Assembly: GCA_958009085.1 (NCBI GenBank)
Contig: OY253687.1
Coordinates: 186,001 to 250,000, forward strand
Reading direction: 5' to 3'
DNA length: 64,000 bases
Source of the DNA: Protoeuglena noctilucae
Taxonomy: Eukaryota
Under the pieces are notes generated by a model. The model worked only from the letters and a program-made list of their open reading frames with translations. It searched no databases and was not told the origin of the DNA. This document shows positions 3,034 to 62,343 of the stretch, piece after piece (positions within the stretch are counted from its first letter, which is position 1; each line of letters starts with the position of its first letter). Position numbers and translations under genes: made by a program.

Positions 3034-7063
<4,030 letters not shown>

Positions 7064-22951: not shown

Positions 22952-25898
22952 ATGACCGGCGCTCCGGCCGGGTCCCGCCTCGAGTCTGCCCTCCCCGTCG
23001 CGACCAGGCCGCCCCCTCTCCTCACGCGCAGGGAAAATGGCGGCGGGAAGCGCCTGCAGTACTCGACGGCGTTCCTCCTCGGGCTGCGGAGCCTGCCCGA
23101 GTGCTCCGAGATGCCCGAAGTGCTGCACCGCTTCCCGACGCTGACGGGGACCTCCAGCACCAAGGGGGTGTGGGCGGACACACGGATCTCGCGCGCGGAC
23201 GCCCGGGGCCGCGGAGCTCGGGGCGAGGAGGAGTACCCTGCCCGCCGCCCCGTGGTCCCTGGCCGGCGCGCTCCCCCGGGCATGAACGGCAAGCACTACG
23301 GCGCGTTGGACGGGCACGAGGGGGACGCGAGCGGCAAGCGCACCCCGGCCGGCCGCTGGGACCAGGAGTGGGGCCCGCGCAATAACGTGACGGGGGCGCA
23401 GTGGGCGGGCCCGGACCGCTGGGACAGCAACCCGGGGCGGGGCCGCGGGCGCCCCAACGATCGCTTCGACCACCGGGAGGACGGCGGGAACGCCGACTGG
23501 CTCGAGGAGGAGGCGGCCCGGCAGGACGCCCGCGGCGACGGCGGGGCGGGCTTCTTCGGGCTCGGCCGGTCGGACGTGATGGACGAGATTGAGCGCGAGA
23601 GGCAGCAGCACCACCGCTCGTGGATGGCGGCAAAGGAGGTGCGGGCCGCCGTCAGAGGGCCCATGCCGGGCGCCACTTGCGTGCGACGAGAGCGCTGGCC
23701 GCAACGTCGGCCCCCCTCTGCGACCATCCATGCAGGGCGACGGCACGCAGGGCAACGACCTTATTGAGCAGAGCGAGGAGGCTCGCAAGCGCGCGGAGGA
23801 GGACGATGTCTTCAACGAGATCTGGGCGCAGTTCAAGGAGGTGAGGCGAAGGGAGGAGGCGTTTGTTGCATGGTCCCACTGTAAGCTTGAACGAGGGGTC
23901 GGAGGTGGTCCTCAACGTTGCTGAGACGCGCGACCTCCGATGGCCGCCGCATCGCCGCAGGAGGGGCAGGACGGCGGGCGCACCGAGGACGTGGGCGAGG
24001 ACGGCCACCGCACGTCCAAGGCCGGGTCCGAGGCCCGCAGCGTGCCCGAGCCGGCCGTCGACTACCAACCCCTCGGGGGCGGCGGCTTCGGCCTCTGGGA
24101 CTCCCTCTCGGCCTTTGACTTCCGCCAGGGCGGCGACCTGGGCGCCCCGGTGGGCAAGGACGCGGCCAAGCAGCTGGGCGCGGCGGACGACCGCAAGCAG
24201 GGGCTTCTCGACGGGCACGCCGAGGCGGCGCAGGTGTGGGCTTCATGCGTGCGTGCGGCGCCCCAGTCGTGGGTGGGGGTCCGTGCGGTGGCCTGTGTCG
24301 GAGCTCGGCCAGCTCATGTCCTCTTGCCTCCTTCGCCTCCGCAGAGCATCCTGTCGCTGTTCCAGCGATCGATGCAGGAAGCGAGGGGCGCGGAGAACGG
24401 GTCGCAGGGCGCCGTCCATGGCCTGCCCTCCCTGACCCAGCAGCAGCTCCAGCAGCAGCAGCTGTCGCGGATGCTGGCGGGGAGGGCCGGCCAGGCCCCG
24501 CCGGCCTCGTCGGCGGCGAGCGACGCGCGGTCGTCCTCGATGCAGGAGGCGACCCTCGAGCTGATGCGCCTCATGCTGGCGCAGCAGAGCAACGGCCGCA
24601 ACCCCGCCGTCGGCGACCGCCCGGACGCCTCGACGCTCCTCGACCTCATCCGCAACGCCGCCACGCAGTCCGTGGTGTCGGGCCAGCAGACCCCCGCAAC
24701 CGCCCAGCCCCCCCGGTCCATGCCCGGCGACGTGGCGGCCCTCCAGCAGCTGGGCCTCCGCCCGCCGTCCCAGCCCAAGGGCTCCCCGACGCGCGCCATG
24801 CCGGGCGGCATGCCCGTGCCATCGCAGGGCCTGCCCCAGGGCCCGGGGGCCCTCAACATTGGCCTGCCCCCGGGGGGCGGCGCCCCTCTGGCCCCGTTCC
24901 CTGGCAGCGCCGGGATGGGCGTGGGCATGCCCGGCCCCATGCCTGGCGCCGCGAAGCCGACCGTGCCCCAGCACGTGAGTGCCGCGCTGCATGACGGGGT
25001 CGGTGTGTGTTGCTCCCCAGTGTGCTCCTGCCTGACACGCCTCACGCCCACGTCCCCTTCCTCCCGCAGTCCGTCCAGCACCACCTGGAGGCCTTCCACC
25101 AGTCGCAGCAGCAAGTGTCCCCGAGCCACGACGCCCTGTCGCTGGCGGCCGTGCTCGCGAAGCTGCAGGTGGCCAACAAGACCATGCTGCAGGGAGGGGC
25201 GCCCCCGAACGCCCACGCGCACGCCCACGCCCACGCGCAAGCCCAGGCGCAGGCCCAGGCTCAGGCGCAGGCGGACGCGCAGCGGCAGCAGCTCCTGGCG
25301 CGCCTGCAGCAGCTCCAGCCCCAGCAGGCGCCCCCGCACCCTCACGCGGCCCTGCAGGCACTGGCGCAGCAGCACCACCACCAGCAGCAGAAGCTCATGC
25401 ACGCCCAGATGCTGCGCCAGGCCCAGGCCCAGGGCCAGGCCCAGGGGCACGTCCGGGGCCCCGTCGCGACGGCTCCCATGACGGCGCAGCTCCTGGCGCA
25501 GATGCACGCGGCCTCGGGGGGCAGCCAGGGCTTCAACCCGCAGGGCCCCAACGCCTTCATGCGCGCCTTCCAGCGCCTCCCCGCGGTCCAGATGCACATG
25601 GGCGGCGCAGGGGCGCCCCACCCGGGCTTCCCAGGTGAGGCTCCGTCGCGCGCCCGCCGGCAATCGCCCGCGCCCCCAGCCTCGCCCATGCGTCCGGCGC
25701 TCACACATGCGCATGTGCGGCAGGCCCGCTTCGCCCCGGACCGCCCCCTCCGCTGCTGCGCCCGCAGGCGGCCCTCCGCCCATGTCCCAATCCCTGGCGG
25801 CCCAGATGCACGGCCAGCCCCAGCAGCCCGCGTTCAACGGCGCCGGGGTGTCGCACGCGGCCCTGCTCCAGCAGCTCCGCTCGCAGATGGGGCCGTGA
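22952..25898 (+). CDS. Low-complexity protein with N-terminal eIF4E-binding motif (CBE1/4E-T-like)
   Basis: KRLQYSTAFLLGLR matches YXXXXLphi. It is followed by R/G/W/D-rich repeats, MDEIERERQ, and long Q/A/P-rich disordered exons. Confidence 0.55.
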
Positions 25899-26477
25899 GG
25901 GGCCAGGCGCTGGACGCTCACGCTCGGGCGGGGCCGGGCCACCCACCAACACCACCTGTATGCCCACCGCCGAGCCTCTCCTCCCCCGGTTCGCACAGCT
26001 GCCTCTGCCTGTGCAATCGCACAGGCACGGGACCGGGGGCGACGGAGCCGCCGAGCGCATCTTAGGTTCGGCGGACGCCGCCAACGCGCGTGCCCGATGC
26101 GTGTGTTGGCACGGCTGCTGCACCACCCCGACTGTCACTTTTGGGCCGCCTCCCCTCGGACGTCATGCAGACGCCGGGGCCACGCGGCGCCCCCTTCGCT
26201 AGGTCAAGCCCAGGAGGGCGTGGGCCGACCCTCGCCTCCGGGCACTTCGTACTCCAATCACCCCCCCTCCTTAGACGTTCGCCTTTTCTATAGGCAGTGT
26301 GGCCTATTCTAGCCCGACGCTGCCCGTTTCGCAGTTTGCGCCGCATCCCCATGCGGACAAATCTGATCGCTCCCGTTTCGCCCCCAGCATCCCATGACGT
26401 CAGCACGTCGCCCTCTCTGTCCCCCCTCCCCTTGCCCGCCCTCCCGCCCCGCCCCCCGCATGCCTGCTGCAGCTAAA

Positions 26478-42351: not shown

Positions 42352-43758
42352 CTACACCGCCGGGCCGCTAGGGGGCTTGGGGATCCCTCCCTTGATGATC
42401 TTGTTGAGGCCATCTGTTGCGAAGGCGATGAGTGGCGAGAGCTGCGTTCCCACGACGCCCAGCGCCTTGCTCACGCCCTCGTAGTCATCCAACCGCCGCC
42501 GCAGGCAATCCCACGTCTCCCGCTTCCCCTCCGACCGATCCGTAAGCATAAACAGCTCTGCAAGGAGCAGGTTCAGACACGCATCATTTACAGGCCTGGC
42601 TAGCAGCCACACCCTCTCCAAGCCTCGACCATGTCACGCGGGCATCCCAGCTCACCCGTAGCGTTGTAGGCGACGGCGAGCAGCCCCCGCTTCGTGTACC
42701 AGTTGTGGTCCGTGCTGGTGTCCCCCGCGTACTGCAGGACGTCATCCACCATCATCGCCATCAGCTTGACTGCCGCCGGGACGTTCTGGGGCTGGGCCAT
42801 GACCCCCATCGCCTGCAACAGCGAGGTCGTCACGTCAGTCCGCCGCCGGAAGAAAATAAAAGGTCCCAAAACACATAGCGCCACGCCGCGCACCTGGTGC
42901 CATGACGCGTCGTAAGGCAGCAGCATCTCGAGACGCAGCTGCAGCGCCACCTCGAGCCTCTCCCGCTCGCTCATCTCCTGCCAGGAGCTCCCCATCCCAT
43001 GGAGCTCGTCCACGAGCCTCGCGTTGCACTTGGCGATGAAGAACTCCACGAGCTCGCCCTCCGCGCGGGGCAGGATGCCTGCGGAGGACCACAGCAGTGC
43101 CCCGGGGGTCGCGACACCTCCCAAACGTTACATTGTGTGTACCGCTATCTGCCGCGCTCACCTGCGACCGCGGGCGACATGCCCACGTCCCGCGCACCCG
43201 CCACGAGCGCCGCGTGACTCCATCCGTGCCTCGGCACGTGCTCCAACGCGGCGCGCAGCAGCTTGTGGCGAAGGCGCTCTGCAAGCACAAGGACCACGGG
43301 GCTTCGCATGACCCTCCGCGGGCGCCAAGCGACGAGAGGGGCACGCAGGAGCCGCACCGAGGTCCCCCGAGGCATCGTCGTCCGTCTGCTGGCTCGTCGA
43401 CGCCGCGTAGCCATCGTCCGTCCCCGTACGTTCCGGATTATCGTATCTCTGAAAGCATCGGCGCCACATCCGTTGTTTCCGAGCAGATTGATGACGACTC
43501 CGTTGCATTGGCGACCGCGTCGCATGCTCGCGTCCGCACCTCCTTGGCCATGGTGGACGTCGTTCTCGTTCCCATATCCATTCGCCTGCAGCCGCCCGCG
43601 CCGGGCCAAACCCCCGTCAGCGCCCACACGGGGCCCGCTGCGTGGTCCAGGGCCCTTTCCATAGGAACGCCGCTTAGGCTCGCGGTCACTACCCCGATTC
43701 CATGCCATGACGATAACAACACGTTCGTCCGCCGCAGCAATCCATCAAAGCGGCGCAT
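42352..43758 (-). CDS. COQ9: Ubiquinone biosynthesis protein COQ9 (5' end uncertain)
   Basis: LLRAALEHVPRHGWS, ELVEFF, AGDTSTDHNWYTKR, YNATELFMLTDRS...TWDCLRRRL. Confidence 0.92.
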
Positions 43759-44128
43759 CTCCACGCGATGCTGCCCGTCGTGAGGGGTGTACTGGGCACA
43801 CGCTGATCGGCAGGTCGAGCTTTGCGACTCTTGCGGACACAGCGGCGTGACTGACGGCCGAGGCAAACCAACGGCGCATTAGAGTCCTAAGGAAGCTCCA
43901 TTGTCTGTTCCTGGCACCACCATGTCAGTTGAGGAGCGTAAAAGAAACACGGCATCATGACGCAAGTACGCAAGGCTTGTCCAAAGATCGACCTCCGACG
44001 AATCCAAGCAGGCCATCCAGCTCCCCCCGAGCTGACCTCCTGCGCCTTTTTAAGGACATCAAGTCTTTCAAACCAGGGAATCGACTCAAATGGTAGCTCT
44101 TTCAGTTCTACTAGCTTTGGTGGGTCTC

Positions 44129-47100
44129 CTAGTCCACCGTCACCACTACGCACTCCTTGCTCACACATGCAGCGTCCGCCACCATCATCTTGCCCCTCAG
44201 CTCCCTTGCCAGCGCGCTGCCCTCAGTGCTCCCGTCCACCCCCAGCTCCCGCAGCACATAACTGGGAAGCCTCACCACGACGGCAGCAGCGAAATTGACC
44301 GTGGCAGCGTAGGACCAGCACAGTATATCGTCCGCGGTGACTACCAGCCGCAAAGGAGTCATCGAAATCTTGCACAGCAGGGCGGGGGGCGTCGCATGCA
44401 TATCCCAGGCACAAAGGTCGCTGCTTCCAGTAGCACTGTTGTGGACAATTCTGCAAGCCAGGATGCCGCCGTCGCAGGTAATGGCCAACCATACAGGAAC
44501 TTTACTCAGCATTGCCGGAACGACTGCAGAGCGTGTGCCCCCGACCTCAAAGGCGCAAAGGTTGTACTTGACGGCACCCTCAGACCCATCATCCTGGTCC
44601 TGATTGGGATCCCTGACTGCCACCGCCACCACCCCCCAAGCACGATCTTGAGACATTCCAAAGTTTGCGACCTCCCATGCCCTCCCATTGTCATCAACAC
44701 ACCTTGTAGGCAGCACACGCCTGGCCTGCCCAGCGACGTCCTCCTGCACCAAATTGCCCTCTTCCCACACCCACAAGCGCTCCTCGTCAGGGCTCAAGAA
44801 GTCCACAGGCTCCCGCAATACTTTCACCGGCTCGCCTGAGGATGGGCTCCAGGCATAGATTGCGCGGCCGTTGAGCAGGTAGAGCTTGTCCTCTCCAGCA
44901 AAGCTAAGATGCCTACCGTACCATCTGTCAGCCCCAGGCAACTCAGTACTAGCCAGCACCTCCCCCGTCGCCATGTCCCACACTACTAGTGCCCAGCCGA
45001 GGTCGCGCTTTTGAAAGACAAAAGCACCTTTTTTGCCGTCCAGCGAAACTGCCACCCGCATGACCACGCCACCCACGTCCACCTTACAGATGCGCGCTCC
45101 CGTTCTCGCATCCACAACGCGAGCAGTGCTCTCGTCTTTTGATTGCACCACAAGCACGCCTCCGTCGGGCGAAAGCCAACCCTTGTATGCTTCTCTCGTA
45201 GCATCTGCGACATTCCCGCCGACTATGTATGGGGAGTCCCCTTGCTGGGCGAGAAGAGCCGACATGTCCCACAGCGAGGTCGCAGTGCTGGTTGAATACC
45301 CTAATGTTCCACCAGTGGGATCTATCTGTACACCACGAAAGTCGTAGTTGGTTTGGAATACAACCACGACGTTTCCTGTGGCCACGTCACGTAGTCTCAG
45401 CTCCATTCCACCCCGGATACGCTTAGCCGTAACAAGACACGCCCCATGAGGGCTGTAATACATGGGACTCTCATCTGCCAAGCGGGTGTTCTCCCGCTCT
45501 AGCAACGACCTTGCGTCGTAGAAAATCGCATTTTTTTGGGAGTATGTGGCGATGGTCGCCCCGTCAGGGCTGACCAGCAATAATTTGCCTTCCAGGAGCC
45601 CACACTGTTTGCCCGCCTTTGCGTCCCACACGAGCACCTTATCAACGACAGCCACGGTGAACGCACTGCCATCCGCACACGCTTCGATTCTCCCTGCGGC
45701 AGCTGTCCCCTCCAGCTCCGCCCGAAGCTGCCCCGACTGCACGTCAAACACCCTCACGTTGCGGTCACTCTGCTTCGCCGCCACCCACGTGCCGCCCCCG
45801 CCTACCAAAGCCAGCTTGATCTCATCCCCCGCTGCCACCTCAGCAAGTGGCCCCGCAGGCACTGCCAGCTCCTCCCCACTGGGCACGCCCCACTGCCGGT
45901 ACCCCTGCTCCGCGACCGCCCCCACCGTCCTCCCCTCATTTACGAACCTGGCGTCGTGCACGTTGACGCCCTCGCCAGTCAGCGGCAGCAACCTCCCCGC
46001 CACGCAGTCCACAAGATAGAGCCCCACCACCCCCCAGACTGCCAGCATGGCACCGTCAGGGCTGAACTGCATGCCCGTTACCCAAGTCCTGTCTTCTGGC
46101 AGTCCGACAGCCAGGGTCCTCGCTCCCGTCACGGTGTCCCAAAAACTGACTGCGTGCTTATCCACCACCCCCAGCACGTCGCCCTCTGGCGAGAAGGCCA
46201 TGAAATCCACAGCTCCAGCGCCCAGCACTTGCGCCTCTGGGAACCCGTCCATGGTCCCAACCACCCGCACCCGACCATCCACGAGCCCCTCGCGCGCGCA
46301 CATGTCCCCCGCAGCATGCATCCACGTGCCCTCCGGCGCCACCAGTGCCGCATCCACAGCAAGGCTGGGGTTGCTGACGAGGACAGCCGAGAAACACCTG
46401 CGAGCGAGTCCAGACATCGATAGGATGCCGTCGCCCCCATGCAGAGCAGACGTCACCGGACTCTGACCCACACGCCACCCCCCCGCTTCCCTCACCTCAG
46501 CCACGCCCTCGTCTCCTGCGCCGGTTCGGCCTTGGCGTGCGACACCGCCCTCAACGCCTGCGCCGCCCTGGCCACGTCCCTTACCGGCCGCCTAACCTCC
46601 CCCGCCTCCGCGCACGCACGCACGTACCCCAGGCTCGTGCACACCGCCGCAGCCACGCCCAGCTCCCCAGCCTCCACCGCGTGGTGCAGCGTGTACACGC
46701 TGGCATACGCCCCCAGCGTCTCCACCACCGCCCCGTTCCTGCCGCCCAGCCCCAGCGCCTCCACCCGGCGCCCCCACACCAGCGCGTGCAGCGCGTGGCC
46801 CACCCGAACGTCCACGTGCCACCCCGACGCCTTGTCCTCCGCCAGCCAGTCCATCACCGACCTGCATGGCGTGTGTGAGAGCGCACGTCAGGCTCACCGG
46901 TCCGCTCCACCCGCCACCAACCCCGCCCTGCTGCCAGCCCCAGTCCGTGCTGCTCACTTGTGGAAGGGCCGCACGCGCCCGTCCGCGCCGACAGGGAACA
47001 GGCTGCCCATGGCCCCCAGCACGCGCGCGGCTGCCCCCGCGTCCTCCTCGCCGTGCTGAACCAGCTCCTGCAGCTCCGACAGGCTCAGCGGCTCCACCGC

Positions 47101-50038
47101 CGCCACCAGCGCCGGCAGCACCCGCGTCCGCACCACCTCCACGTCCCGCTCCCCCAGCGCCCTAAACTGCCTGTCGAAGTACTCCTTGTACAGCGCCCGG
47201 TGCCCCTCCGGCAGATCCCCCACCGCCATGTTTGCCACCCCGCCCTCCACCCTCGCCCCCACCTCCCGCTGCACCATGCCCACCAGCGCCGCCACGTACG
47301 CAAACACGCCCGCGCTCTTCCCCTCCAGCGCCTCCACCACCGCGCCCCTCTCGTCATCGCTCAACCCCTCGCTCCTCAGGCTCCCCCGAACGTACGCCCG
47401 GATGTCCTCCCGGTTGCGCCCCTCACTCGGCTCCAGCGTGAAGGGCTTGAACCGCGCCACCTGCCGCACGATGTACTCCTCCGGCCGCGACGTCACCAGC
47501 ACCCGCACCCACCCCGGCAGCTCCTCCACGCACCCCGACAGCACCTGCAGCACCCCGTTGCTGCGCGCGTCCGTCCCCGCCTCGTCCACCGCGTCGATCA
47601 CCAGCACCACCGGCGCCTTGGCCCACGCCACGCCCCTCAGCGGGCCCACCACCAGGCTGCGGAGGTCGCAAGGCTGTCGAGGTCATGCCGTACGCTTGCT
47701 TCGATCACTCTCGCTCATAAATGCCACCCAACCGTGATCGTGCCTTCGGAACCAATCCATGGCCGTGCCATTGAGGTCCAGCTCTCGCAGCCCCTCCTCC
47801 ACCGCCGCCGCCGCCTCGGGCACCGCCTCTGCCACCTGGTACGCCAGCGACTGCGCCATCACCCTCGCGTCCGTCCTCGACTCGTCCCCCGCCCGGCAGA
47901 AGTGCCCCCCCAGCAGCCGCCCGGCCCTGTGCAGCTCCAGCGTCACGTGCGCGGTGAACGCCGTCTTGCCCATGCCTGCGGATGATGATGACCGGGGAGG
48001 GGTGCGCGGCAGTGAAACGGGCTTTCATCGCATCCCTCCAGTCCATGTCAATCCAGCCCTCACGCTCGCCAGTCGCTGTCACTCGCCTGGAACGGAAAGC
48101 AGCAGGAACACCTTGCTGGACCGCCCCGCCTCGCTCCCCGCCGTCGCCTTGCCGTCCACCCACGCCATGACCTCCTCGGCCAGCCACTGACGCGTCCCCA
48201 CCTGCAAGACACATCGGCATGTGCTTGACCATGTTCACCACCCCCGCCGTCTCTGCCCACACGTTCGCATCCACGCAATCTCACTCACCATGAACCCCGC
48301 CTCGCGTATGTCGGCGTCGTGCAGGAAGTCGTGGTGCTTCAGCAGCTTGGCCAGCTCCTCCAGCGACCCTCCCACTGCCTCGGCCTTCTCCTCCACATTC
48401 TGCCGAGCTTGCGTCAGAGCTGCCGCCAGGTTCCTGGCGCTCGCGCGCTTGCCCGCTCCGCCCTGCGCCCCGCTCCTCCCCTTGCCCACGCCGTTCACGT
48501 GCACGTACCACAGCACGTCCCGGAACCGCACGCTGCCCCACTCCAGCTTGCCCCTGCGCTTGGCCCCCTGCGCCAGCTGGTACAGGTTGTGCGCCTGCAC
48601 CCTGTCCGCCGGCGCCAGCAGCCGGTGCAGGTCCGTCCGCACGAACTCCGCCAGCTCCGGCGGCGCCAGCCTCTCCTCGTACCACCGCGCGGCCTCCTCC
48701 AGGATCGGCAGCTCCTCGTTCAGCAGCGCGATCTCAAACACCCCCCACTCCATCTCCGCCGCCACGTGCGCAAACCCCTCGTCCTCGTCCACCCACAGCT
48801 TCCTCAGCTCCTCCGGCAGCTTCTTCACCTCCTGCGGCTCCGCGTCCAGCACCTGTCCGATCTTGCGCTCCAACGCCCCCACCTGCTCCCCAAGCGCCGC
48901 CACCTGCTCCCCCACGTTTTGCACCAGTCCCGCCAGCACCTGCTCCCCCGGCGCCAGCAGCCCAAACACCGCGTCCACCCGCTGCTTGTCACCCAGCACC
49001 GCCCGCAGCTGAGCCGGGGACACCTCGTCCAGCCGTGCCGCCCCCGCCTCCCCCGCCAATCGCAGCGCCAGGTCCTGACTCGAGAAGAGCCTCCCCCCCG
49101 CCATTGCCACCCGTATCTCTTCAATTTCCCGCAGCGACTGAACCTGCATGGCCGCCGAGAGTGTCCCCACCTGCGCCAGAATCTTGCCCGCTAGCTCCTG
49201 CAGACCGTCCGTGTCCCCTCGCGCCTTCACAAACCGCCCCAGCCACGTGCGCCCCTCCACCTCCTCCACCACAACGCCCGCCTCACGCAGCAGGTCTGTG
49301 GGCCACCGACATCCAGCTGCGATTCCGATTCCAACACCAGCGAGGCCCCGTCGCCATCTGTCATTCGTACACATTCACCCCTGTTCACCGCCGATTTCCC
49401 AGAGTGGCTCGCCTGTCAGCTCCTCCAGGGCCCGCGTCTGGTTCATGACCACCTCGTGCGCCGCCACCACGACCTCCACCACACCCGACACCACTCGCTT
49501 AAAATCCTCCAGCGCCGCACGCACCGCCACCGCCTCCGCGATCCCCGTCATGACCCGGGACGCGACCTCTGCCAGCGGCCCCACCATCGGCGCCCTCGCC
49601 AGGACCTCCAGAGCCTGCAGCCCACCCTTGGCTAGGAGCCGCAGCACATCGCCGGTCACGTTGTACTGCTGCGGCACGACGCGGGCGTGATGGTTGGAGC
49701 TCAGCCAAAGGCCACAGATGCATGCATGTGTCCATGCCCGCCCACCTGGAGCATAGAAGCGACGGGAGCAGACAACGGTTGCGCGATATTGAGGAGCCTC
49801 TGCGTGCGCAGTGATGTCGCTCTCCGCTCCGTCACTTCGCGCGCGCAGCAGCCGCTAGCGCAGATGCAGCTCAGATGCAGCGCACCTGCAGCTCGGCACA
49901 GCGCTCCTGCGCTGCGCTACCAAGCTCAATTGCTCGGCCGGCGATTGCTTCCTGCCCCGAGGGCTTCATCTCGTCCCCGGCGGGCGCCTCCGGTGAATCA
50001 TTGTCTGCGACGGCAGGCTTGCTGGCCGCGCAGCCCAT
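44129..50038 (-). CDS. NLR-like STAND NTPase: MGCAAS lipidation motif, MLKL-like 4-helix bundle, NACHT-type NTPase, WD40 repeats
   Basis: Walker A VFLLLSVPGMGKT (spliced 48086/47975), Walker B VLVIDAVDEA, VLVTSRPE, PLSLSEL, PFHKSMMDWL. Many WD40 repeats (FSPEG..FWDTVTG, FSPDG, VFDVQSG, VWDAKAG) in a ~2.3 kb exon. Confidence 0.85.
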
Positions 50039-50269: not shown

Positions 50270-53200
50270 TCACTGAGCGTCCTCTTCGGCAGCGAGGACG
50301 ACGTCGTGCAGCTCGTCAATGAAGCGGTTCACTTCGCCCGTCGGGATGCGCACCGTGGAAGCCAGGAACGCGTCGTTGGACGCAGCGGACTCGATCTGCG
50401 ATAGCGGGACAGCAACACGTCGTGGTGTGCGCTGGGCTGCGGGCGAGCCACTTGCCACGTGCGGCGGGCGCAGAGCGGCCCCCACCTTGTCCAGGGTGTT
50501 TTGGAAGAAGACGCTTAGCGCGTTGCCCGCAGTGCCTCGCAGCAATCGGCTCGTCACCCCCACCACCCAGCACTTGCCCGTCCCGTGCTCCTCTGGGCCC
50601 ACGACCACTGCGGGTGTGTGTGAGGGGGCGACGGCATGCAGCTGCAGGGCCGGGTCACAAGCGCGCATGGCCTCGGTGGAGCAAAGCCGCGACAGTCCCT
50701 GGGCTCCCCAGCGCAGCAGGCCGGAGGCAGAGGCCACCCACAGCTGCAGAGCCCGCTCACCCATGCGGAGGAAGGCCCGGCTGCCGCCCATGGAGGCGTG
50801 GGCGTCCTGAATGAACGTGGCGAGGCGCGTGAGTGCCATGGGGAAGCACAGCAGCTCCCGGGACCGGGCAGGGAGGCCCTCGCTGAGGTTGACGCAACAG
50901 AAGCCATGGTACCGCTCCACGCGCCGGGCCTGTATGGCGCGCCCGGCGTGCTCAATCACGGCCCGCTGGATTTCTTTGCTCAGCTCGAGGCCCCGCTGGA
51001 TCTCCGCGACGTTCGCCAGGCTCTGCGGGGGCACGCCACAGCACGTCACGCATGCCACGGGAGCACGTGCGCGGCCAGAGGGCCTCGAGATGCCAGACAT
51101 CGCTCCAATGCCATGGATGCCCTTTCGATGTTTCGTGTTTCACGCCGCCGGCAGCTCACCAGAGCATCCATGGCTGTCCAGAACTGGGACGGCTGGTCGG
51201 GGCCCGCCTCCAGGAGCGCCGTCACGGCCGCCACCATGTCCACGGCACCCATGGCGTCCTGGTATCCAAAGTGGAGCTTGAAGGAATCGAACTTGATGTC
51301 CTCGATCTGGAACAGCGTCACCCACTGGTCCATCTTGGCCGGGAGCTGCCGGCGCACATCTGGGTCCATCGCACTGCACGCGAGGCAGCGAGGGCAGTGA
51401 CGGCAGCGTCAACGCTGGTGCATAGGAAGCCGACAGCTGCGTGCTTGCGCTCGATAGCAGCGATGGCAGCGGCGCTGCGGCTGCACAACTAAGCTTGTGT
51501 GGCGAGCGCTTGTCGGCTCACGATAACCGCAACACGGAAGCGGCTCTCTAGGCGGCGTCAATCAGACTCCCCGACGCGGAGCATGGGCTGCACACGCAAC
51601 ACACAGCATTCATACCACTCACCTGAACGCCTTCTTCGCCTCCTTGAGCGGCAGGCCCATCTTTGCCAGGAGCTGCTCCACGGCCGCCCGCCCTCCCTCC
51701 GACCAGGTGCGCAGCTTGGTGGCCACGAAAGGGCTGTAGATGATCGAGTCGTAGAGGCTCCAGTGCCGGTACAGGTGCAGCCGCAAGGCCTCCTCCTCCA
51801 CGATCCGACCCCGCACGAACGCCTGCAAGGGAGAGGCCAAGGATGCGTTGACGTCAGTGGCTGACGCTGTGCACCATCACCAAAACATCGCCCGCCCGTT
51901 CTCTGTCATGTTATGCTGTGCACCATAACATGCTCACATTGATCGCCAGCCAGCCAGCGACAACCATGCACAGTCCGCCGGAACCCACAAGCAGCGATGG
52001 CCGTCAGAACCCACAAGCAGCGATGGCCGTCAGCACCCACGCCGCCGCCCGCCTCGCCTTGGTGATTGTCCCGTCGTTGTGCTGCACCTCCGTCTGCTGG
52101 TCGTAGTTGTCCGCCTGCTTGACGCGTGACAGCAGCTCCTCGTAGCTCACCGCGTACCCCTCGCGCCCCACGTGCCCGTGCACCAGTTGGTCGGTCAGCC
52201 CCAGCACCGCCAGCCACAGCAGCTGCTTATCGTCCTTCCGGAGCTCCTGGCACAGGCGCAGGCACAGCTCGGACGCGCTCCGGCCGTAGTGCTGCCCACG
52301 GGCGTAGTACTCGATGCGTCTCAGCACCCGCTCCTCCTTTGCCCGCCGCTTCGCTCGCCGCAGCTGCGGTCACGAGGCAGGCGCGGGCGCATGAAAGGCG
52401 CAGGGCGGGGCTGGCGGCAAACAATCGCACGCAGGCTGCTGCGGGTGGGACCACGCCAAGGCTCCAGCCGCCCATGGAGGGCCTGCCGGGGCGCAAGGCA
52501 TAACGCGCACCCGACGTCACAGTTGGCGTCCGCCCGCCTAGCGCTGCGACTCGCCTCTTCCCGCGTCGCTCTTCGCTTCCGCCCCGCCAACGGCGCCCCC
52601 GCCCCCGCCCCCGCCCCCGCCCCCGACACCCCCACCTCCCCCGACCGCCTCGCCCGGGCCCTGAGGCTGTCGACCTCCCCCTCCTCTGCGGGCCACAGTG
52701 AGGTCAGGTAGCTTTCGTAAGCACGCGTGGCAACGACCCACGCCCGGGACACGTCACTCCTTGGCTCACGCGTAACTACCCCTCCGTCCCCGTGCCACGC
52801 ACCTGGGTCCTGGCTGCCCCCGTGCAGCCCCAGCGGATCCTCGCCGTCATCCTCCACGCGCGCCGTGTCGCCCGACGCCCCCCGCGAGCCCCCTCCCGCC
52901 GCCTCATCCCCGTCCCGGGCCATCCTGCTGCCACCCATGCCATCGCCACTCGCACCCTCGCTCTCAGACCCCTCGCTCTCCGAGTCCGACTCAGACTCTG
53001 AGTAAAGCTCGGCCAGGCCCACAGGAATGTCGTTGCTCGACGCCTCCACGGCCTCGTCCCACATCAGGTACACCTGCGGCGAGACCCAGCGCCAAGTGGA
53101 GCTCTCGCGACCGGGGCCGGAGGTCGTCCCCGCCGTGCGTCCGGGGCGTGCGGGCCGACGCGAGGCGCAGCGAGGGGGACTAACGCAGGCGTGCGCCAAG

Positions 53201-53901
53201 TCCCTCTCCCTCACCTGCTGGTTGTCTGGCGAAAGGTTGTTCAAATGCACGGGGCGGTGCGCGTCGATGACGTAGGCCCGGACCTCCTTCCCGAGGTCCA
53301 GCAGCTCGCGGATGTCCTCCGTGACACCGCAGTTGATCAGTAGGATGGAACGGTACTCGTCGTTGTCGCCCTTGAGCATGTCCTGCACCCATCAATCAAG
53401 CTGTCCATCCAGCTCGAAACGCCCGCGCGCGCCCGGGCGACGCTACCCGCGCTCGATAGGACGGGCATCCAGCCATGCGGAAGCGCACTGCGATGCGCAG
53501 CGCGGGGCACGGGAATGGCCACATTGCCGCCACAATGCCGTACCTGGCACGCTTGCTGGAGGTGGTCGTAGCCGGTGACCGGGATGATTGTGTGCATCAC
53601 GCTGTCCGTCTGGAGCATCTTGCGCACTATCCTCGTGGCGCTGACCGAGTCCGCCTCGCCCGCCGCGACGAAAATCTGCAGCGCACCCTCCCGGATCGCT
53701 CGTCGCGCTGCCCTTGAATGCGCGCGGGGCATTGCCCCGGGCTATCATCCATCCCGACTCGGACATGCGATTGCAATGAGCCGCCAGCCATCGCGAGCGC
53801 GCAGGGTGCAGGCTCACCAAGAGCTTCCTGTCATCGTGAGCGAAGACGTCCTGGACGAGGGCCTCGTACGCCGACGCGAACTGGTCAGGGGTAACCTTCA
53901 T
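50270..53901 (-). CDS. CDC45: Cell division control protein 45
   Basis: IFVAAGEADSVSA, ILLINCG, VIDAHRPVHLNNL, acidic loop, LWLAVLGLTDQ, LYRHWSLYDS, LLAKMGLPLKEAK, AVDMVAAVTALLE. Confidence 0.95.
51981..52040. repeat. 26-bp tandem repeat (two exact copies plus a partial) in a CDC45 intron
   Basis: GAACCCACAAGCAGCGATGGCCGTCA twice, then GCACCCAC. Confidence 0.95.
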
Positions 53902-54694: not shown

Positions 54695-57600
54695 ATGCCG
54701 AGGTACCAGAGCGTGCCTGCGAACGAGGGATCTCCTCTGTCCAACGCTCGGTCCGTCTTTTCGGTGGATGTCAGCCGCAATCGCGGGACGCCGGATGACG
54801 GCCTCCGGGCCGCAGGGGGCACGTCCGTAGGTAAGGCGACTTGGCGAGCGCCGCCACCGCGATGGCTGCGCTCGGCGTCCATGAAAAGCTCATCGGCGGT
54901 TTCATGCTTCCCTGTCTGCATGGAGGCTCTCTCGGCGGGCGATCGGGCAGCTCTGCACCGCGCACTTTTATCTCTCGCTTGTGGTTCCGGGTTGTCCGCA
55001 GGCGGCTGGCGCGCGCTGTTGTCGGCCCTCATCTCGCCGTCCCCGGGGAGTGGAGCTGACCATCCCCGAGGTGCTCGAGAGGGCTGGGTCCCGGAGGATG
55101 AGGCCTCGCGGTGGGGGCGATGGTTATTCACGTACTGCAGCTCTCTGGTCAAGCTCGGCTGGAAGTACTCGCAGGAGGGGGTCGGAATGGAGATGGAGGA
55201 TCTCTGGGACCTGGCGGAACAGTGAGTACGGCCGCTTGGCCCGCGCCGCTGCCTGGTTGCAGCCGCGATCCGGAGCACGCGAGCGACGCCTTTGATGCGA
55301 CCCACACGCAGGGACCAGGCCCGCGTGCTCTCCGAGCAGTTCAATCGGGCGATGGACAAGACGAGGGACCGGTACCCGAGCAAGCGGGGCAGCGTGGCCT
55401 GGGCGCTGTGGTCCTGTCACCGCGGCGTGATGCTCCTCACCGCCGGGCAGAAGGTCATCCACGACCTCCTGCAGTTCGCCTTCCCCGTGCTGCTTCGGTG
55501 GATGCTTCAGCACCTGCAGAACGACGGCAACCGCGGCGGCGGTGAGGCCCCGGCCAGGCAGCTTGCGTTGCGCCAACTGGGGTGTGCGCCACGCATGCGC
55601 CACCCCTCCCTCCCTCTGCCCTCGCAGCCGTGCTGATCGCGTTCCTCATGCTGGCGACCCTCGTGGTCAAAACGGTCATCATCAACCAGTACTTCAACTC
55701 TCTCTTCCGCGTCGGCATGCACATGAAGGCCCAGCTGGTCCACATGCTGTACGACAAGGCCCTCCGCATCACGGAGCCCGCCAAGGCCAAGCACGGCGTC
55801 GGCGGTATCGTCAACTTGCAGAGCAACGACGCCAGCAAGCTCTGGAACCTGCCATCCTACATCCACGTGCTGTGGTCCGGGCCCCTGCAAATCATCATCT
55901 GCATGGCGCTGCTGGTGAGCCACGGCCAGCAGATGGCCACTAGCAGATGCCAGCCCAGCGTTCCGTGTCCTGCGCGCTCACAGTGCTCTTGAGACTCTGC
56001 CGGACCACACACTGCCAGACACGACTCGCAACGAGCGCCTGTGCAGGTGTCCGTGGTGGGACTGATCCCCTCGGCTGTCGCCCTGGGCGCGACGCTCGTC
56101 CTCGTGCCTCTCAGCACGTCCGTGGGCAGGATCTTGCTGCCTATCCGCAAGAAGCTGATCGGCATCACAGATCAGCGTGTGAAGGCGTGCAGCGAGGTGG
56201 TGACGGGCATCAAGGCCATCAAGCTCTACGCGTGGGAGCAGCCCTACACGGAGCGCATCGAGAAGCTCAGGCGAGCGACGCGGCTGCTGAGACCGAGCTG
56301 GCTTTGGGATGAGCTGAAAGCGACACAGTTCTTGTATATGCAACGATGAGCCTGTGGGTGACAGCCGCGTGCCCTTAACTGCTCGCCCCCAGGGCCCAAG
56401 AGCTGGCGGCGATTCAGAAGGTCCGCCTGATCGGCGTCATCAACAGCGTCGTCTTCTCGTCCTCTCCCATCCTAACCACCCTGGCCGTCTTCATCACCTA
56501 CACCAGCATGGGCATGGCCCTCACGCCTGACGTGGCCTTCACGGCCCTGTCCCTCTTCGGCCTCCTCCGCTTCCCCGTCTCGGTGCTCCCGAGGCAGATC
56601 ATCAACGTCATCAACGCCAACGTCGCCATCAAGCGCATCCAAGACTTCATGGACCTCGAGGAGTACCAGCCTTCCATCGCAGCGCCGCCCCCGGGGCAAC
56701 GCGAGGCGGTGCGTGCGGGCGCTGCGCCAGGGCAGGATCCCGGCTGGGGCTGTGTTTGTGTGTAATCGTGTATTCGTTATCTTATCACCACCTCGCACCG
56801 TACCCACTGCCCCCCGCCAGTCACAACGGCATCCCTGTGCATCTCTCACCATCTTCCACTGCACTGTCCACCCTCCCCGCTCTGTGCTTACCTTGCCACC
56901 CCCGTTGCACCCTTCCTCGCAGGCCCTCCAGGTCTCGGACGCGTCTTTCTGCTGGAGCACGCGGGTGGCGTCAGACGTGCCGCCCGTGCTGCGCAACGTC
57001 AGCCTGCGCGTCAACAAGGGAGAACTGGTGGTGATCGTCGGCGCGGTGGGGGCGGGCAAGTCCAGCCTGCTGCAGGCCATGCTGGGGGAGCTCCGCACCC
57101 TGCAGGGATCCGTCATGATCGACCCCGCCTCGAAAATCGCCTACACCGCGCAGGTGACTGGCCGGCATGGCACAACAGCATGCCCTCACTGTCCCATGCG
57201 TTCCCCTGTGCACGTGCGGGAGCGTGGGCACTCTGGTACAACTTGGCACTTAAGTAGCCCTGAAGCTCTCACTGATGCTCTTACAACTTCTCTTTCTGTT
57301 CCCCACAGGACCCGTGGATTCAGAACGCCACCGTCCGCGACAACGTCACGATGGGCACGGAGCCGGACCCCTCCCGCTACGATGCCACGCTGGAGGCCTG
57401 CGCGCTGCTCCCCGACCTCGACGTCCTGGCCGCGGGCGACGAGACGGAGATTGGCGAGAAGGGGGTCAATCTGTCAGGGGGCCAGAAGCAGCGGGTGGCG
57501 TTGGCCCGGGCGGTGTATGCCGACGCGGACGTGTACCTGCTCGACGACCCGCTGAGCGCCGTGGACGCGCACGTGCAGGCGCACCTGATGCGCAAGTGCA

Positions 57601-59023
57601 TCTGCGGGATGCTGCGGCACAAGACGAGGGTGCTGGTGACCCACCAGGTGCAGCACGCCCGCGCGGCCGACCGGGTGGTGCTCGAGGGCGGCAGCATCAA
57701 GCACCAGGGAACACGTGAGTAACAAGGGGGCGGGTTGTGCTACGAGCAGCTCTGTCGCTCTCTGCTTTGTCGCTCTCTGCTTGCTTTGTTGCTCTGCCCC
57801 GGCACTGCCTGCTTCTCTCGTGCAGTCTATCCCCTCTCAGCCCGTTTGGGCAAAGTACAACCTCAGCGATCCTCCCCGCCCCTTTCCTCCCCGCAGCGGC
57901 CGAGCTGAAGGCCAAGGGGGTGGACCTGGCGGCCTTCTGTGTGGCCAGCCGCCCCAACAGCGAAGACAGCGGTGACCGGGCCACGCGCGACATGAGCCAG
58001 GCTGACCTGATGGGCATGGAGGCCTCCGCGTCGGGCCGGGCGTCCTCGGCGTCGCCCGCGCCCACCGACGCCGTCCGGGAGGCGCGCACCGCATCGGCAT
58101 CGGCTGCAGAGGCGCCTGCCCCCGATCGCCACGCCGCGAACGGGCGCGAGGGGTCGAGCAAAAACGTGGACGGCCTGGCGGGGATGCTGCACGGCGGAGA
58201 CCGTGCGGGCGCGGGGCGGGCGGGCGCGAGCGGCGCGGGGGAGAAGCACAAGGAGGAGGGCGGCGGTGTGGGTAGGCATGGGGGTGGCACGAAGGACGCT
58301 GTGCCTGGGTCCAAGCTCAAGGGTCGCAAGGCGCCTTCGAAGGGGCGACTGGTGGAGAAGGAGATGCGTCAGGTCGGGCAGGTCAAGGCGTCTTTCTACT
58401 ACGCCTATCTGAGCTCGTGGTCGCCTTATTACTGGATCCCCATCGCGGCGCTGCTCATGTCCGTCGGCTCCCAGGCGATCTTACAGGCGAGTGAACGGGG
58501 CACGACAACTGCTGTTGTGTCGAGTTTCGTGTGGGGGAGTGCAGCGTGATGGGGGCGATGAGGAATGAGCGTGTTAGCATTCCCAATGCAAGCAGCTGCC
58601 CTGCATCGCACATGCCTGCAAATTGCCCTCGCTCCGCCACTCTCGCCCCGCAGGTCACCAACTGGTGGCTGCAGCTGTGGTCCTCTCGCGTCCAGTCTGC
58701 CCAAGCCGCGGCGGGGCGCCACGACGGCGACCCTGTTGCGCCTGCCGGTAAGGCTTCCCCCGGCATCGACACCATGTACTATCTGGCCGTGTACAACGTC
58801 CTGTCGGTCGCGGGCATCGTCACCCAGGCGTTCCGGAGCCTGTTCATCGTCTTAGGCAGCATGGGCGCATCCCGCCGGCTGCACGACCGCCTCCTGGCCG
58901 TCGTCATGCGCCTGCCGATGAGCTTCTTCGACACGCAGCCCGCCGGGCGACTCCTCAACCGCTTCACGCGGGACATGGACCAACTGGACCTGGAGCTCGG
59001 CAGCAACTTCGAGGTGAGGAGAG

Positions 59024-59088
<65 letters not shown>

Positions 59089-61053
59089 CACGAGTTGTTA
59101 GGTGGTTGTTGACAGTAGCTTGGTTGAGCCGCCTGCACCCTCACCTGCCCCACCACCCATCCCCGCAGTCGATTGCCAACTTCGGCATGATGCTGGTGGC
59201 CAACATGGCGATGGTGGCGTACGTGTCTCCCCCCGTGGCCGCCATCTTCGCCGTCCTCAGCCTCGTCTACCTTCGCGTGCTGAGGATCTACGTGGCCACC
59301 TCGCGCGAGGTCAAGCGCATCGACTCTGTGCAGAACAGCCCCATCTTCAGCCACTTCAGCGAGAGCATCGCGGGCCTAGTGACGCTGCGGGCGTTCGCGG
59401 GCGCGGCAGAGCAGGGGGTCGAGAAGGACCTTCAGTTGGTCGACCGGTCCACACGCGCCCACTGGCCCAGCACCGTGCTCAACCGCTGGCTGTCCATCCA
59501 GCTCGAGATGCTCGGCAACGCGGTCATCTTCGCCACCGCGCTGCTCACCTGCGTCGCCGGCAACCGTGCTGCGGGCATGGCTGGGCTCGCCCTCTCGAGC
59601 GCGATCAACCTGACGGGGCTGCTCAACTGGGTCGTTCGGTGCGTCAGCGACGTCGAGGTGTCGATGAACAGCGTGGAGCGCATCTGCGAGTACCTGGACC
59701 ACCCCACCGAGGCGCCCGCCATCGTGAGTGGTTGGCGAGCATCGTACTGCTGCAGCTGACTCGCTGGCTTGCGCAGATGCACCTTGCCACCGCGGCTGAC
59801 TGCCTCGCGCACGCACATACTGCCGCTGCGATGCACCGTCCACACTGTGCCCCCATCTGCAAGCCAGCCCCTTTGCACTATCCACCGTGTCTCCTCTGCC
59901 ATTGCAGATCCCCGGGGAGCGCCCCCCGGCCGGCTGGCCCTCCTCCGGCGTCATCGACGTGCGCAACCTCGTCGTCCGCTACCGCCCCGACCTCGACCCG
60001 GTCATCCACGGCATCAGCTTCGCCACGCGGGCGAGGGAGAAGGTCGGGGTCGTGGGGCGCACGGGGTGCGGCAAGAGCACCCTCATGCTCACCCTCTTCC
60101 GCATCGTGGAGCCGACGCAGGGTGAGCGGCGACGATGTAGCGAAAGACTCTGCTGCAGCTGCGTAGAGGTGCCCTCTTTGGCCACGAGCCCTGCTTTGCA
60201 TCCTGCGCGTACCGTGTTTGTGTGCTGCTGCTACCCCATGCCCCCACACATAGCGCTATCCACCCCACTCACCATGCTCATGAGCTGCCCTTACGGCCTG
60301 CCCGGTGCTTTGGCATCACTCAGTGCTTTCTCTTTTGTCTCCCTCGCAGGCGAGATCCTCGTCGACGGCATCAACACGAGCTCCCTGGGTCTCTTCGACC
60401 TGAGGTCGCGCCTTGCATTGGTCCCCCAGGACCCCGTCATCTTCTCGGGCACTGTCCGGTCGAATCTGGACCCATTCGGTGCCGGTGAGCTGCGGAGAGG
60501 CTGTGCCAGAAACGCAGCGCCATGCAGGGCTGGGCGTCTTCTCACCTGCAATTTCACCATCTCACATCCCATGCAAACCAGTGTCGGTCGCTCCGCCCCT
60601 TTTGCTGCAGTGCCGGAGGACGCGTCCATTTGGGAGGCCCTGTCGCGCGTGCACATGGCGACGGTGGTCAAGGGCCTGGGCGGTCTGGACTCCAAGGTGG
60701 CCGAGGGAGGGGGCAACCTGTCGGTCGGGCAGCGGCAGCTGCTGTGCATGGCGCGCGCCCTCCTCCGCAACTCCCGGGTGCTGCTGCTGGACGAGGCGAC
60801 CTCCAACGTCGACAACGCCACCGACGCCGTCATCCAGCGCACCATTCGCGAGGCCTTCCGGGGATGCACGGTCCTCACGATCGCCCACCGCCTCAACACG
60901 ATCGTCGACTACGACCGCATCCTCGTCCTGGACCACGGGCGCATTGCGGAGTTCGACTCGCCCCGCGTGCTCCTGGCGCGGCCCGGGAGCGCCTTCGGGG
61001 CTCTGGTTGCCGAGACGGGCGGGGTGGGCGAGGGGCAGGGGGACGACGACTGA
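54695..61053 (+). CDS. ABCC/MRP-type full-size ABC transporter
   Basis: GIKAIKLYAWE. NBD1 GAVGAGKSS / GEKGVNLSGGQKQR / LLDDPLSAVD. FFDTQPAGRLLNRF. NBD2 GRTGCGKST / NLSVGQRQL / LLDEATSNVD / IAHRL. Confidence 0.95.
59027..59085. repeat. (TG)n microsatellite (~29 units) in an ABCC intron
   Basis: Uninterrupted TG run shortly after the donor GAG|GTGAGG. Confidence 0.98.
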
Positions 61054-61272: not shown

Positions 61273-62024
61273 TCAGGCGCTAGGAGGGTTGCGGCGAACG
61301 GGCGGGGTCGGGCCCATCTTGGTGCGCAGCGCCTGGGCCTTGGCCCTGGCAGAGGCGGTCTTGGCACGGAGGTCGTCGACCGCCTCAGAGAGCCCCACCT
61401 CCTGCGCGAGCGACGTGAAAGCGACTACATCATCGCACAACCCGCGCGCACGCAACTGTCAGGGACTGGGGCCTGACATCGAAGCAATTTTGATGCGGAC
61501 TACGCCCTCGCCTTGGGTGGCGCGGTTGTGGCCGACTTGCTGTCGCCCGGCCCCGACGAGTAGCTGGCAGCACCCGTCGCCGTTCGCTGCGCCCTCTCCG
61601 CCTCCTCCCTCGCCCGCGCCCTCACTTCCTCCTCAAAGTCCTGGAGGAACCTCTTGCGCTCTGCCTCTGCCTTTTGCACTTTCGCGAGCGACTCGGCCAC
61701 CGCGCTGCCGACGCGGTCCGCCACGGTGTCCGCAAACGCCTTCCCGAGGTACGCCAGATCAGACAAATCCGGCCCCCCTGCGATGCAACAGAGGCAACTG
61801 CGTCTCCTGCGCCCCCAAGCCAGCTCCAGCTGCCCCCACAGGCCACCATGGCATGGGCCGGAGGCATCGACAGCACATGAGCACAAGGGGGTCGCTGGGA
61901 GCACACCTGTGGACCCGGAGCTCGCGCTGCAGGGCAACGGTCCGCGAGCCATGCGGACGGGCCGAGGGCCGGGCGCCGGAGCCACGGAAGCCCCCGGCAG
62001 CAGTCGCGTCGACAACGACTGCAT
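61273..62024 (-). CDS. Plastid-targeted coiled-coil protein, At4g13200-like / cyanobacterial-type
   Basis: Transit-peptide-like N-terminus. YLGKAFADTVADRVGSAVAESLAKVQKAEAERKRFLQDFEEEVRARA and LSEAVDDLRAKTA. Confidence 0.65.
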
Positions 62025-62343
62025 CCTGAGAATGCACCGTCGGCCGCCGTGTGAGGCGAGGGGGTGACTTTTGCTCCGTGCTGTTGAGACGCGGCGTTGG
62101 GTGGCAAAGCTCGTGGCACATTCTCCGCGACAGCTTCAGCGCCATGCGCAGTACGGATGGCGTCGAGAAGAGACGCTTTTCAAGTGTTCAGGAGCGCCAG
62201 TCTTCGGTCGTGGCACTGGCAGAATTGCGTGGCGGGGCCAGAGAGCGAGTTCCAGGCCCACGAGCTGCGGCAGCGCGCCATTGCGTCTATTTGTTGGCCT
62301 GCTAGCTCCTGTTCTTGGTTGTACCGAGCTCTGTTCCCTCGTA

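Follow-up and report, generated by a model that had tools for sequence, protein, structure and literature searches.

In fungi, the HeLo/HELL domain is the homolog of the four-helix bundle of MLKL according to one report (PMC10197012), and a preprint describes a plant MLKL family that is conserved across seed plants (bioRxiv 10.1101/681015). MLKL_N also appears among the N-domains of NOD-like receptor (NLR)-like proteins from other lineages in a 2026 paper (PMC13449251). Programmed death of marine phytoplankton under viral infection or stress is ecologically important, and its sensors and executioners are largely unknown. A survey of 67 protist species reports no homologs of mammalian necroptosis or pyroptosis regulators (PMC7539657), and a further report lists NACHT-domain genes among the genes with high transcription in Gephyrocapsa huxleyi that resists viruses (PMC12489294). 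Here, we describe a gene at positions 44129 to 50038 of a 64-kb window, the whole stretch of contig OY253687.1 from Protoeuglena noctilucae that was analyzed. We lean, with modest confidence, toward reading this locus as a membrane-tethered, fungal-style MLKL_N/HeLo-like-NACHT-WD40 NLR, a receptor of the signal transduction ATPases with numerous domains (STAND) class, and as a predicted cell-death or defense switch.

The gene appears in the window as a minus-strand chain of long reading frames at 44129-50038. When the nine exons of this chain are joined, they give a 1724-amino-acid (aa) protein that stays in frame without an internal stop. The protein opens with the sequence MGCAAS. A helical domain and a 28-residue heptad stretch come next, followed by a conserved middle domain and an NPHP3_N/NACHT NTPase, and divergent WD40 sequence of about 750 aa closes the chain. 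As judged from these domains, an N-terminal effector-like domain, a nucleotide-binding oligomerization domain (NOD), and C-terminal repeats would be united in one polypeptide, which is the architecture of an NLR.

Evidence on the nature of the N-terminal domain came from profile searches. We prepared a domain-limited alignment of ten rows that included the window's two exon pieces (alignment A6) and searched its profile against all PDB sequences. The best 7 of the 14 matches were all MLKL N-terminal domains, and the first unrelated match had an E value of 0.47. Five of the MLKL matches had E 2.4-2.6e-4, with human MLKL at 2.4e-4; 6lk5 followed at 1.5e-3 and mouse MLKL (4btf) at 5.2e-3. The match to mouse MLKL joined profile positions 29-126 to chain residues 10-112, which span helices 1 to 4, and the MLKL chains at E 2.4e-4 aligned over the helix 3-4 part that is encoded at 49057..49295. 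The motif shared with MLKL in this alignment reads ...eea..lVeeV.nR..l.RFl.A..D.... A broader alignment (A1) also placed MLKL at the top, with 6 of the 7 matches, but at E 0.29. A search with the single sequence of one relative, P0007, against PDB gave nothing relevant.

Pfam points the same way. MLKL_N (PF22215) was listed at E <= 1 for 9 relatives and was the only recurring N-terminal family. The E values were 3.8e-6 for P0006, 4.3e-6 for P0021, 1.6e-3 for P0007, 5.7e-3 for P0005, and 0.015 for P0010, with weaker values for P0001 (0.026), P0016 (0.082), P0014 (0.12), and P0008 (0.17). All of these matches fell on the same region of the profile, at positions about 29-128. In a language-model atlas, the neighbors of P0007 residues 50-200 were fungal (Basidiomycota) clusters, and 6 of the 30 matches, with scores of 0.94-0.95, belonged to the MLKL_N set. 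We also considered HeLo, RPW8, or Rx_N as a better label. None of these three was among the Pfam matches listed for the relatives at E up to 5, and we rejected them because only MLKL_N recurs in the Pfam lists. We argue homology from the A6 profile search, and on this evidence the helical domain probably belongs to the MLKL/HeLo-like superfamily.

The original prediction had placed the helical region at about 49100-49670. The sequence does contain the peptides that it quoted, divided between two exons (49389-49668 and 48289-49295). Exon 3 (49389..49668, minus strand; aa 70-162) codes for helices 1 and 2 of the MLKL_N-like domain and for helix 3 up to its middle; the conserved AP[MLF]V[GA]P[LV]A helix falls in this part, which aligns with the relatives P0007, P0010, P0011, and P0012. 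The remaining half of helix 3 and helix 4 come from the start of exon 4 (49057..49295, minus strand; aa 163-242), where the motif EEVEGRTWLGRFVKARGDTDG occurs, and Pfam MLKL_N matches in relatives fall here at profile positions about 50-128.

Ahead of this domain lies a putative acylation signal, in exon 1 (49886..50038, minus strand; aa 1-51), which holds the start codon, MGCAAS, and an acidic low-complexity stretch. An N terminus of the form M-G-C-x-x-[ST] is the pattern of dually acylated proteins, and MGCAASK fits this pattern for myristoylation and palmitoylation. The codons ATG GGC TGC GCG GCC AGC begin at 50038, and this ATG is the first in frame after a stop, so that the predicted MGCAAS terminus is indeed present. 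A start of this kind, MGC[AG]AS, was found in 3 of 3 N termini of the family: MGCAASKP in the window, MGCGASKP in P0027, and MGCGASSP in P0010. It thus looks like a family trait. In P0010, a distant member, about 170 residues separate MGCGAS from the MLKL_N-like domain, and no Pfam match is listed there. This insert indicates that the region ahead of the bundle is variable within the family.

Downstream of the bundle, exon 4 encodes the predicted heptad coiled coil (48841..48924, minus strand; aa 287-314). All 8 of the 8 a/d positions across its 28 residues are hydrophobic, and the stretch is visible in the DNA as 21-nucleotide (nt) tandem repeats at 48796-48916. The remainder of exon 4 (48289..48825, minus strand; aa about 320-498) encodes a family-specific middle domain of about 180 aa (LPxxLRxLWxDE ... 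WY ... LAP). It had no Pfam match, and alignments A2 and A3 show invariant P, L, and W columns in it. Its equivalent in P0007 was modeled at a predicted local distance difference test score (pLDDT) of 80-94.

The NTPase is spread over exons 5 to 7. Exon 5 (48087..48201, minus strand; aa 499-536) is the lead-in to the P-loop and is colinear with P0010 and P0006 (...FM.GTRAWL...SLPGMGKT). Exon 6 (47744..47975, minus strand; aa 537-613) holds the first half with the Walker A motif, and exon 7 (46958..47656, minus strand; aa 614-846) holds the second half with Walker B and a winged-helix-like part. Walker A motifs take the form GxxxxGK[ST] and Walker B motifs the form hhhhD..DE. GMGKT occupies aa 537-541 (the P-loop has Ser instead of its first Gly), and VLVIDAVDE occupies aa 631-639 (47581-47607). 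Pfam NPHP3_N (PF24883) scored 36.1 bits (E 9.4e-9) on exon 6 and 25.2 bits on exon 7, against a cut-off of 24.8; in P0010 the same family reached 63.1 bits (E 4.7e-17). Classical NACHT (PF05729) was weaker, at 19.1 bits (E 1.2e-3) against a cut-off of 26.7. The prediction of a STAND NTPase of the NACHT type was thus borne out by NPHP3_N above its cut-off on both exon pieces and by both Walker motifs, but not by the NACHT family itself. The exon 7 part is 54% identical to P0010, identity to anything outside the family was at most 35% in the contig scans, and a phmmer search of PDB with exon 7 gave nothing at E <= 1.

Exon 8 (46496..46861, minus strand; aa 847-968) encodes a helical segment that links the NTPase to the propellers and is colinear with the C-terminal part of P0010. 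Exon 9 (44129..46397, minus strand; aa 969-1724 and stop) encodes a divergent WD40-type beta-propeller region, probably two propellers, and ends in a stop codon at 44129-44131. Its frame (820 aa) matched Pfam Beta-prop_THOC3 (E 1.4e-14) and the Prp19 WD40 family (E 1.4e-7), and its best PDB relatives were the WD40 domain of PkwA (E 3.4e-13) and WDR5 (about 1e-5). Thus, the long WD40 array expected in the original prediction is there. The single-repeat family WD40 (PF00400) scored only 15.7 bits against a cut-off of 27, so the repeats are divergent, and 11 blade ends of the form [WFY][DE] are recognizable. No tandem DNA repeats of blade period were found in 44129-46397. This absence of repeat-period similarity makes the region unlike the hypervariable repeats of HET-E/NWD proteins. 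The HET-E-like layout that had been proposed is therefore retained in the order of its parts (effector-like N-domain, NACHT-type NTPase, WD40) but not in internal conservation of the WD40 repeats or in a HET domain; neither HET nor TIR gave a Pfam match in the window gene.

To define the gene model, we mapped public sequencing runs on the locus, among them the RNA libraries X1 and X2 and the DNA run X5. Contigs from marine metatranscriptome libraries skip 49800-49885, 49669-49745, and 46398-46495, all GT..AG on the gene strand. Contigs that break off at 46861 and at 46956 each continue into the exon of the other and so confirm the intron at 46862-46957 and with it the exon 7 donor. RNA thus supports 4 of the 8 introns (1, 2, 7, and 8), all of them GT-AG, including both introns that flank exon 8. 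The exon 1 donor at 49885 is confirmed by the RNA joint 49799->49886. The RNA contig over exon 1 seems, from depth bins, to end about 75 nt into the exon, so that it covers the splice and the ATG itself lies outside it. Exon 2 is an in-frame micro-exon of 54 nt (49746..49799, minus strand; aa 52-69) between the MGCAAS exon and the helical exon. Both of its joints occur in one X1 contig and read CT..AC on the plus strand, which is GT..AG on the gene strand. The acceptor of exon 3 is RNA confirmed, and its donor, G|GTGAAC, is inferred. RNA contigs over the exon 9 region cover 44055-45573, and several exons are covered by RNA contigs without differences from the window. The gene is transcribed and spliced in marine samples.

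Introns 3-6 were placed by frame, splice signals, and colinearity with uninterrupted homologs: exons 3-7 are colinear with P0010, P0006/P0021, and P0007. Introns 3, 4, and 6 contain stops when read through, and the introns of the gene are 77-111 nt long. The exon 5 donor is an inferred GCGAGT (GC-AG) for the intron 47976-48086, which no spliced RNA covers. At the 3' end of exon 6 the boundary is uncertain, with either a GC-AG intron at 47657-47743 (GCACGA) or, alternatively, a GT-AG intron by which the protein gains 11 aa. If the GC-AG introns 47976-48086 and 47657-47743 are real, the organism uses GC donors fairly frequently. We also observed, in the 46893-46952 region, a 58-nt skip with noncanonical ends (TC..CT), together with a 2-nt deletion at 46871. 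Both occur in X2 (RNA) and in X5 (DNA), and their most likely source is a paralog in which intron 7 is shorter, not splicing. The original prediction had the MGCAAS exon spliced to the NTPase exons. RNA does join exon 1 to the helical exon, but the onward link from helical to NTPase exons rests on homology.

Homologs of this protein are rare. When exon 4 (335 aa) was used in an exhaustive HMMER search of 1.84 billion protein representatives, no more than 10 clusters came up at E <= 1e-3, and most of these are exon-sized open reading frame (ORF) calls from large contigs of up to 1.27 Mb. One member, P0010 (1119 aa), is a single uninterrupted frame that starts with MGCGAS and runs through an additional N-terminal stretch, the helical and middle domains, and the NTPase. 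In P0006/P0021 the helical domain is joined to the P-loop, and P0027 starts with MGCGASKP and ends in an exon-3-like peptide. These proteins suggest that the domain architecture, too, is a family trait. Word-indexed searches for longer proteins gave none for exon 4 or exon 7, which is weak evidence, and for exon 3 only two ORF fragments, P0011 and P0012. The N-terminal and middle region (alignment A3) had no relative in scans of metagenome, viral, or prokaryote contigs. The NTPase had none in the viral contig scan and, in metagenome contigs, only distant NPHP3_N proteins. The family is small and lineage restricted, occurs in a few GC-rich eukaryotic genomes, and is apparently multicopy.

We propose that such a protein would work as follows. 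Gly2 would be myristoylated and Cys3 palmitoylated, and the protein would be held on a membrane. The WD40 propellers would hold the protein inactive as long as no ligand, such as a viral or stress-derived molecule, is bound to them. Nucleotide-dependent oligomerization of the NTPase would then cluster the MLKL_N-like domains at the membrane, and these would disturb or permeabilize it, as do the MLKL bundle, fungal HeLo/HELL domains, and plant coiled-coil (CC)-NLR resistosomes. The infected cell would die or arrest. In auto-inhibition and oligomerization, the part of the MLKL brace probably falls to the middle domain together with the short coiled coil. The further idea, that a marine unicellular eukaryote has here a family of membrane-anchored NLRs with a true MLKL/HeLo necroptosis homolog as executioner, an intracellular sensor-killer and possibly an antiviral suicide switch, is one that we put forward only tentatively.

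Several observations weigh against a membrane-tethered MLKL-type NLR. No member of the family reaches the Pfam MLKL_N gathering cut-off of 27 bits (the best are P0006 at 26.9 and P0021 at 26.7), so the domain is not filed as a formal MLKL_N member. The window's exon translations, searched singly, gave no listed MLKL_N match at E up to 10, the N-terminal frames had no Pfam match, and P0002, P0015, and P0023 had no MLKL_N match in Pfam. Since the domain spans an intron in the window, we modeled the relative P0007 with AlphaFold2 and 10-12-row alignments. The whole protein reached pLDDT 69.0 and a predicted template modeling score (pTM) of 0.34, and the domain only reached pLDDT 68.2 and pTM 0.44. 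Both of these low-confidence models show long helical hairpins, with helices 2-3 fused, and helix 4 fused with the brace, and neither reproduces a compact four-helix bundle. The predicted MLKL-like bundle was specific to MLKL_N in profile searches (E 2.4e-4) but was not recovered as a compact fold. In the structural check that had been suggested for the N-domain, the best matches of both models in Foldseek and VIA searches were generic helices (BAR, FAT, ABC-transporter, and colicin), and no MLKL chain was among the matches listed. We ascribe these generic matches to modeling with 10-12-row alignments and do not count them against the fold. A complex prediction of the exon 3 peptide with the first 79 aa of exon 4, which bears on packing of the split domain, scored 0.01 and counts neither way.

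The position and chemistry of the bundle are also adverse. MLKL, HeLo, and ZAR1 use an extreme N-terminal helix, whereas the window bundle is internal: it begins about 85 residues from the N terminus, and its helix-1 equivalent starts near aa 95, with exon 1 (MGCAAS), the micro-exon, and some 25 residues of exon 3 ahead of it. A killing helix at the extreme N terminus was accordingly not found. Helix 1 of the window is moderately hydrophobic (KD19 1.23 versus 2.12 in P0010), and the MLKL_N-like domain is net acidic (-6). The WD40 repeats lack the high internal conservation seen in HET-E/NWD-type fungal NLRs. In the gene model, introns 3-6 are without spliced RNA among the mapped contigs, and the helical exons and the NTPase exons are not connected by any RNA contig. 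Introns 3, 4, and 6 occur within the RNA libraries only in unspliced contigs (X2); because these share end points with X5 DNA contigs, they may be DNA or pre-mRNA. Furthermore, 2 of the 8 introns require inferred GC donors (GCGAGT and GCACGA) instead of GT. The argument from paralogs is only a hint. In a DNA run from organism A, depth was 359-890 over 46452-48882, compared with 128-289 in the flanks, but this is summed contig depth and not copy number. The contigs of that run diverge at at least 6 loose ends. The raised depth and the diverging contigs suggest several near-identical paralogs that share the NTPase and the middle part; tblastn found no second copy inside the 64-kb window.

We asked whether other explanations account for these data. 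One is that the protein is a lipid-anchored STAND scaffold or signaling ATPase without a killing role, comparable to nephrocystin-3, NWD1, and TANC, that might serve, for example, in organizing a membrane or flagellar compartment. NPHP3, a myristoylated cargo of UNC119, has a parallel layout: lipid signal, then coiled coil, NPHP3_N NTPase, and repeats. The assignment of the NTPase to NPHP3_N rather than to classical NACHT, the housekeeping-gene surroundings, WD40 repeats without a hypervariable, internally conserved pattern, and the failure of the models to recover the bundle all fit such a scaffold. However, in the profile search the N-domain matched the executioner domain of MLKL specifically, and the repeats are WD40 whereas those of NPHP3 are TPR; we found no TPR match, and the C terminus is WD40, unlike that of a nephrocystin-3 ortholog. 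A conserved ciliary or scaffold protein would be expected to be widespread, but this family is tiny and patchy, with 10 clusters among 1.84 billion, and there are signs of several near-identical copies. We consider a scaffold without a killing role unlikely. The protein might instead be an NLR whose MLKL_N-like helices only adapt, oligomerize, or auto-inhibit and signal to a separate executioner, doing no membrane damage themselves. A bundle that is internal and acidic, a window helix 1 with low transmembrane propensity, the extra conserved middle domain after the bundle, and models with extended hairpins, the shape of a coiled-coil adaptor, would suit that role. Yet the part shared with MLKL is helices 3-4 (helices 1-4 in mouse MLKL), the executioner module itself; the conserved dual-acylation signal would put the domain at the membrane; and no adjoining partner gene is evident. 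An adaptor of this kind seems to us rather improbable.

It could also be asked whether the nine-exon model artefactually chains two or more genes or represents a decaying pseudogene copy. In favor of this, exons 3 and 7 are not bridged by any single RNA contig, the model has to assume two GC donors, and the X2 contigs are unspliced. Nevertheless, P0010 has the MGCGAS, helical, middle, and NTPase parts in one 1119-aa frame, P0006/P0021 link the helical domain to the P-loop, the nine exons are in frame with no internal stop, and RNA contigs over several exons are identical to the window. An artefact or a decaying copy is thus very improbable. A transposon or pseudogene was rejected on the grounds of the intact frame, RNA splicing, and ordinary neighboring genes.

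The neighboring genes, identified by Pfam, are COQ9 (42603-43744) and CDC45 (50273-53391, minus strand). The gene is thus isolated among housekeeping genes, as the original prediction held, and no partner gene is evident beside it. Judged by its sequence relatives, it is not itself a housekeeping ortholog: the 10 clusters among 1.84 billion and the signs of several copies agree with the earlier expectation that it is not a conserved single-copy gene of that kind. The intergenic gap between the NLR gene and CDC45 is at most about 230 bp. A 1136-nt X1 RNA contig at 50191-50397, the X1 piece of highest depth around the locus (8.89), terminates a short way upstream of the NLR start and continues toward CDC45. 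All three parts of the Cdc45-MCM-GINS (CMG) helicase lie in the one 64-kb window, as an MCM subunit (3334-6292, minus strand), GINS PSF2 (14772-15806, plus strand), and CDC45 (50273-53391, minus strand); this clustering may be coincidence or a replication-gene neighborhood. GC content is 0.59-0.75 per 2 kb across the window. Its GC-richest part, 22000-26200 (0.72-0.75), has frames of up to 638 aa on both strands and no Pfam match. An ORF at 61503-62135 (minus strand) matches Pfam DUF6825 (E 5.4e-15) and adjoins a full ABC transporter gene at 56476-61050.

With an MLKL-like domain, a NACHT-type switch, and a WD40 sensor fused in one expressed gene, the locus is a concrete, testable candidate, and it extends the pairing of MLKL/HeLo with NLRs, familiar in fungi, to another eukaryotic lineage. 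No account of an MLKL-like NLR from algae or protists came up in our literature searches, whose coverage stopped short of subscription journals. If the reading as a membrane-tethered MLKL-type NLR is true, MLKL-type regulated necrosis would exist outside animals, fungi, and land plants, and phytoplankton death would gain a defined molecular trigger. In addition, a lipid anchor with an internal bundle would be a new deployment, prepositioned at the membrane and released by NTPase oligomerization rather than recruited from the cytosol.

The locus can be compared with four known systems. Nephrocystin-3 and prokaryotic NPHP3_N STAND proteins have an NTPase of the same Pfam family, but nephrocystin-3 has TPR repeats and no MLKL_N-like domain. 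The nearest nonfamily relatives, in long uninterrupted ORFs of metagenome contigs, are TIR-NPHP3_N-TPR, TIR-NPHP3_N-HTH_TANC1, and NPHP3_N-WD40 proteins at 29-34% identity; these NPHP3_N proteins carry TIR effectors, and the window gene is not their ortholog, nor that of NPHP3. Plant CC-NLR resistosomes such as ZAR1 would share the proposed logic, in which a helical bundle acts on the membrane after NOD oligomerization, and several plant CC-NLRs are N-terminally acylated. They differ in having NB-ARC and LRR where the window protein has NPHP3_N/NACHT and WD40, with no Rx_N or RPW8 match listed for it. Animal MLKL (PDB 2msv, 4btf, and 6zvo, among others) is similar in profile over helices 3-4, or helices 1-4 for mouse MLKL. 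Its bundle binds phosphoinositides via basic residues, whereas the window domain is acidic and a lipid anchor is predicted instead. MLKL is switched by its pseudokinase and RIPK3; the window protein would be switched by its NTPase and WD40 region. The greatest likeness in domain order is to the fungal HELL/MLKL_N-NACHT-WD40 NLRs (NWD-type STAND; Dyrka et al. 2014, PMC4986451), which also have an MLKL-related helical N-domain, a NACHT-clade NTPase, and a WD40 sensor in this order. The nearest language-model neighbors of the family's N-domain are likewise Basidiomycota clusters, some of them with MLKL_N. In contrast to these fungal proteins, the window gene comes from a GC-rich marine eukaryote with 77-111-nt introns, and its product has an MGC acylation signal with about 85 extra residues ahead of the bundle and a family-specific middle domain of about 180 aa. 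The domain combination is already known, from fungi; the novelty lies in the lineage (a marine eukaryote with spliceosomal introns), in the conserved acylation signal together with an internal bundle, and in the middle domain.

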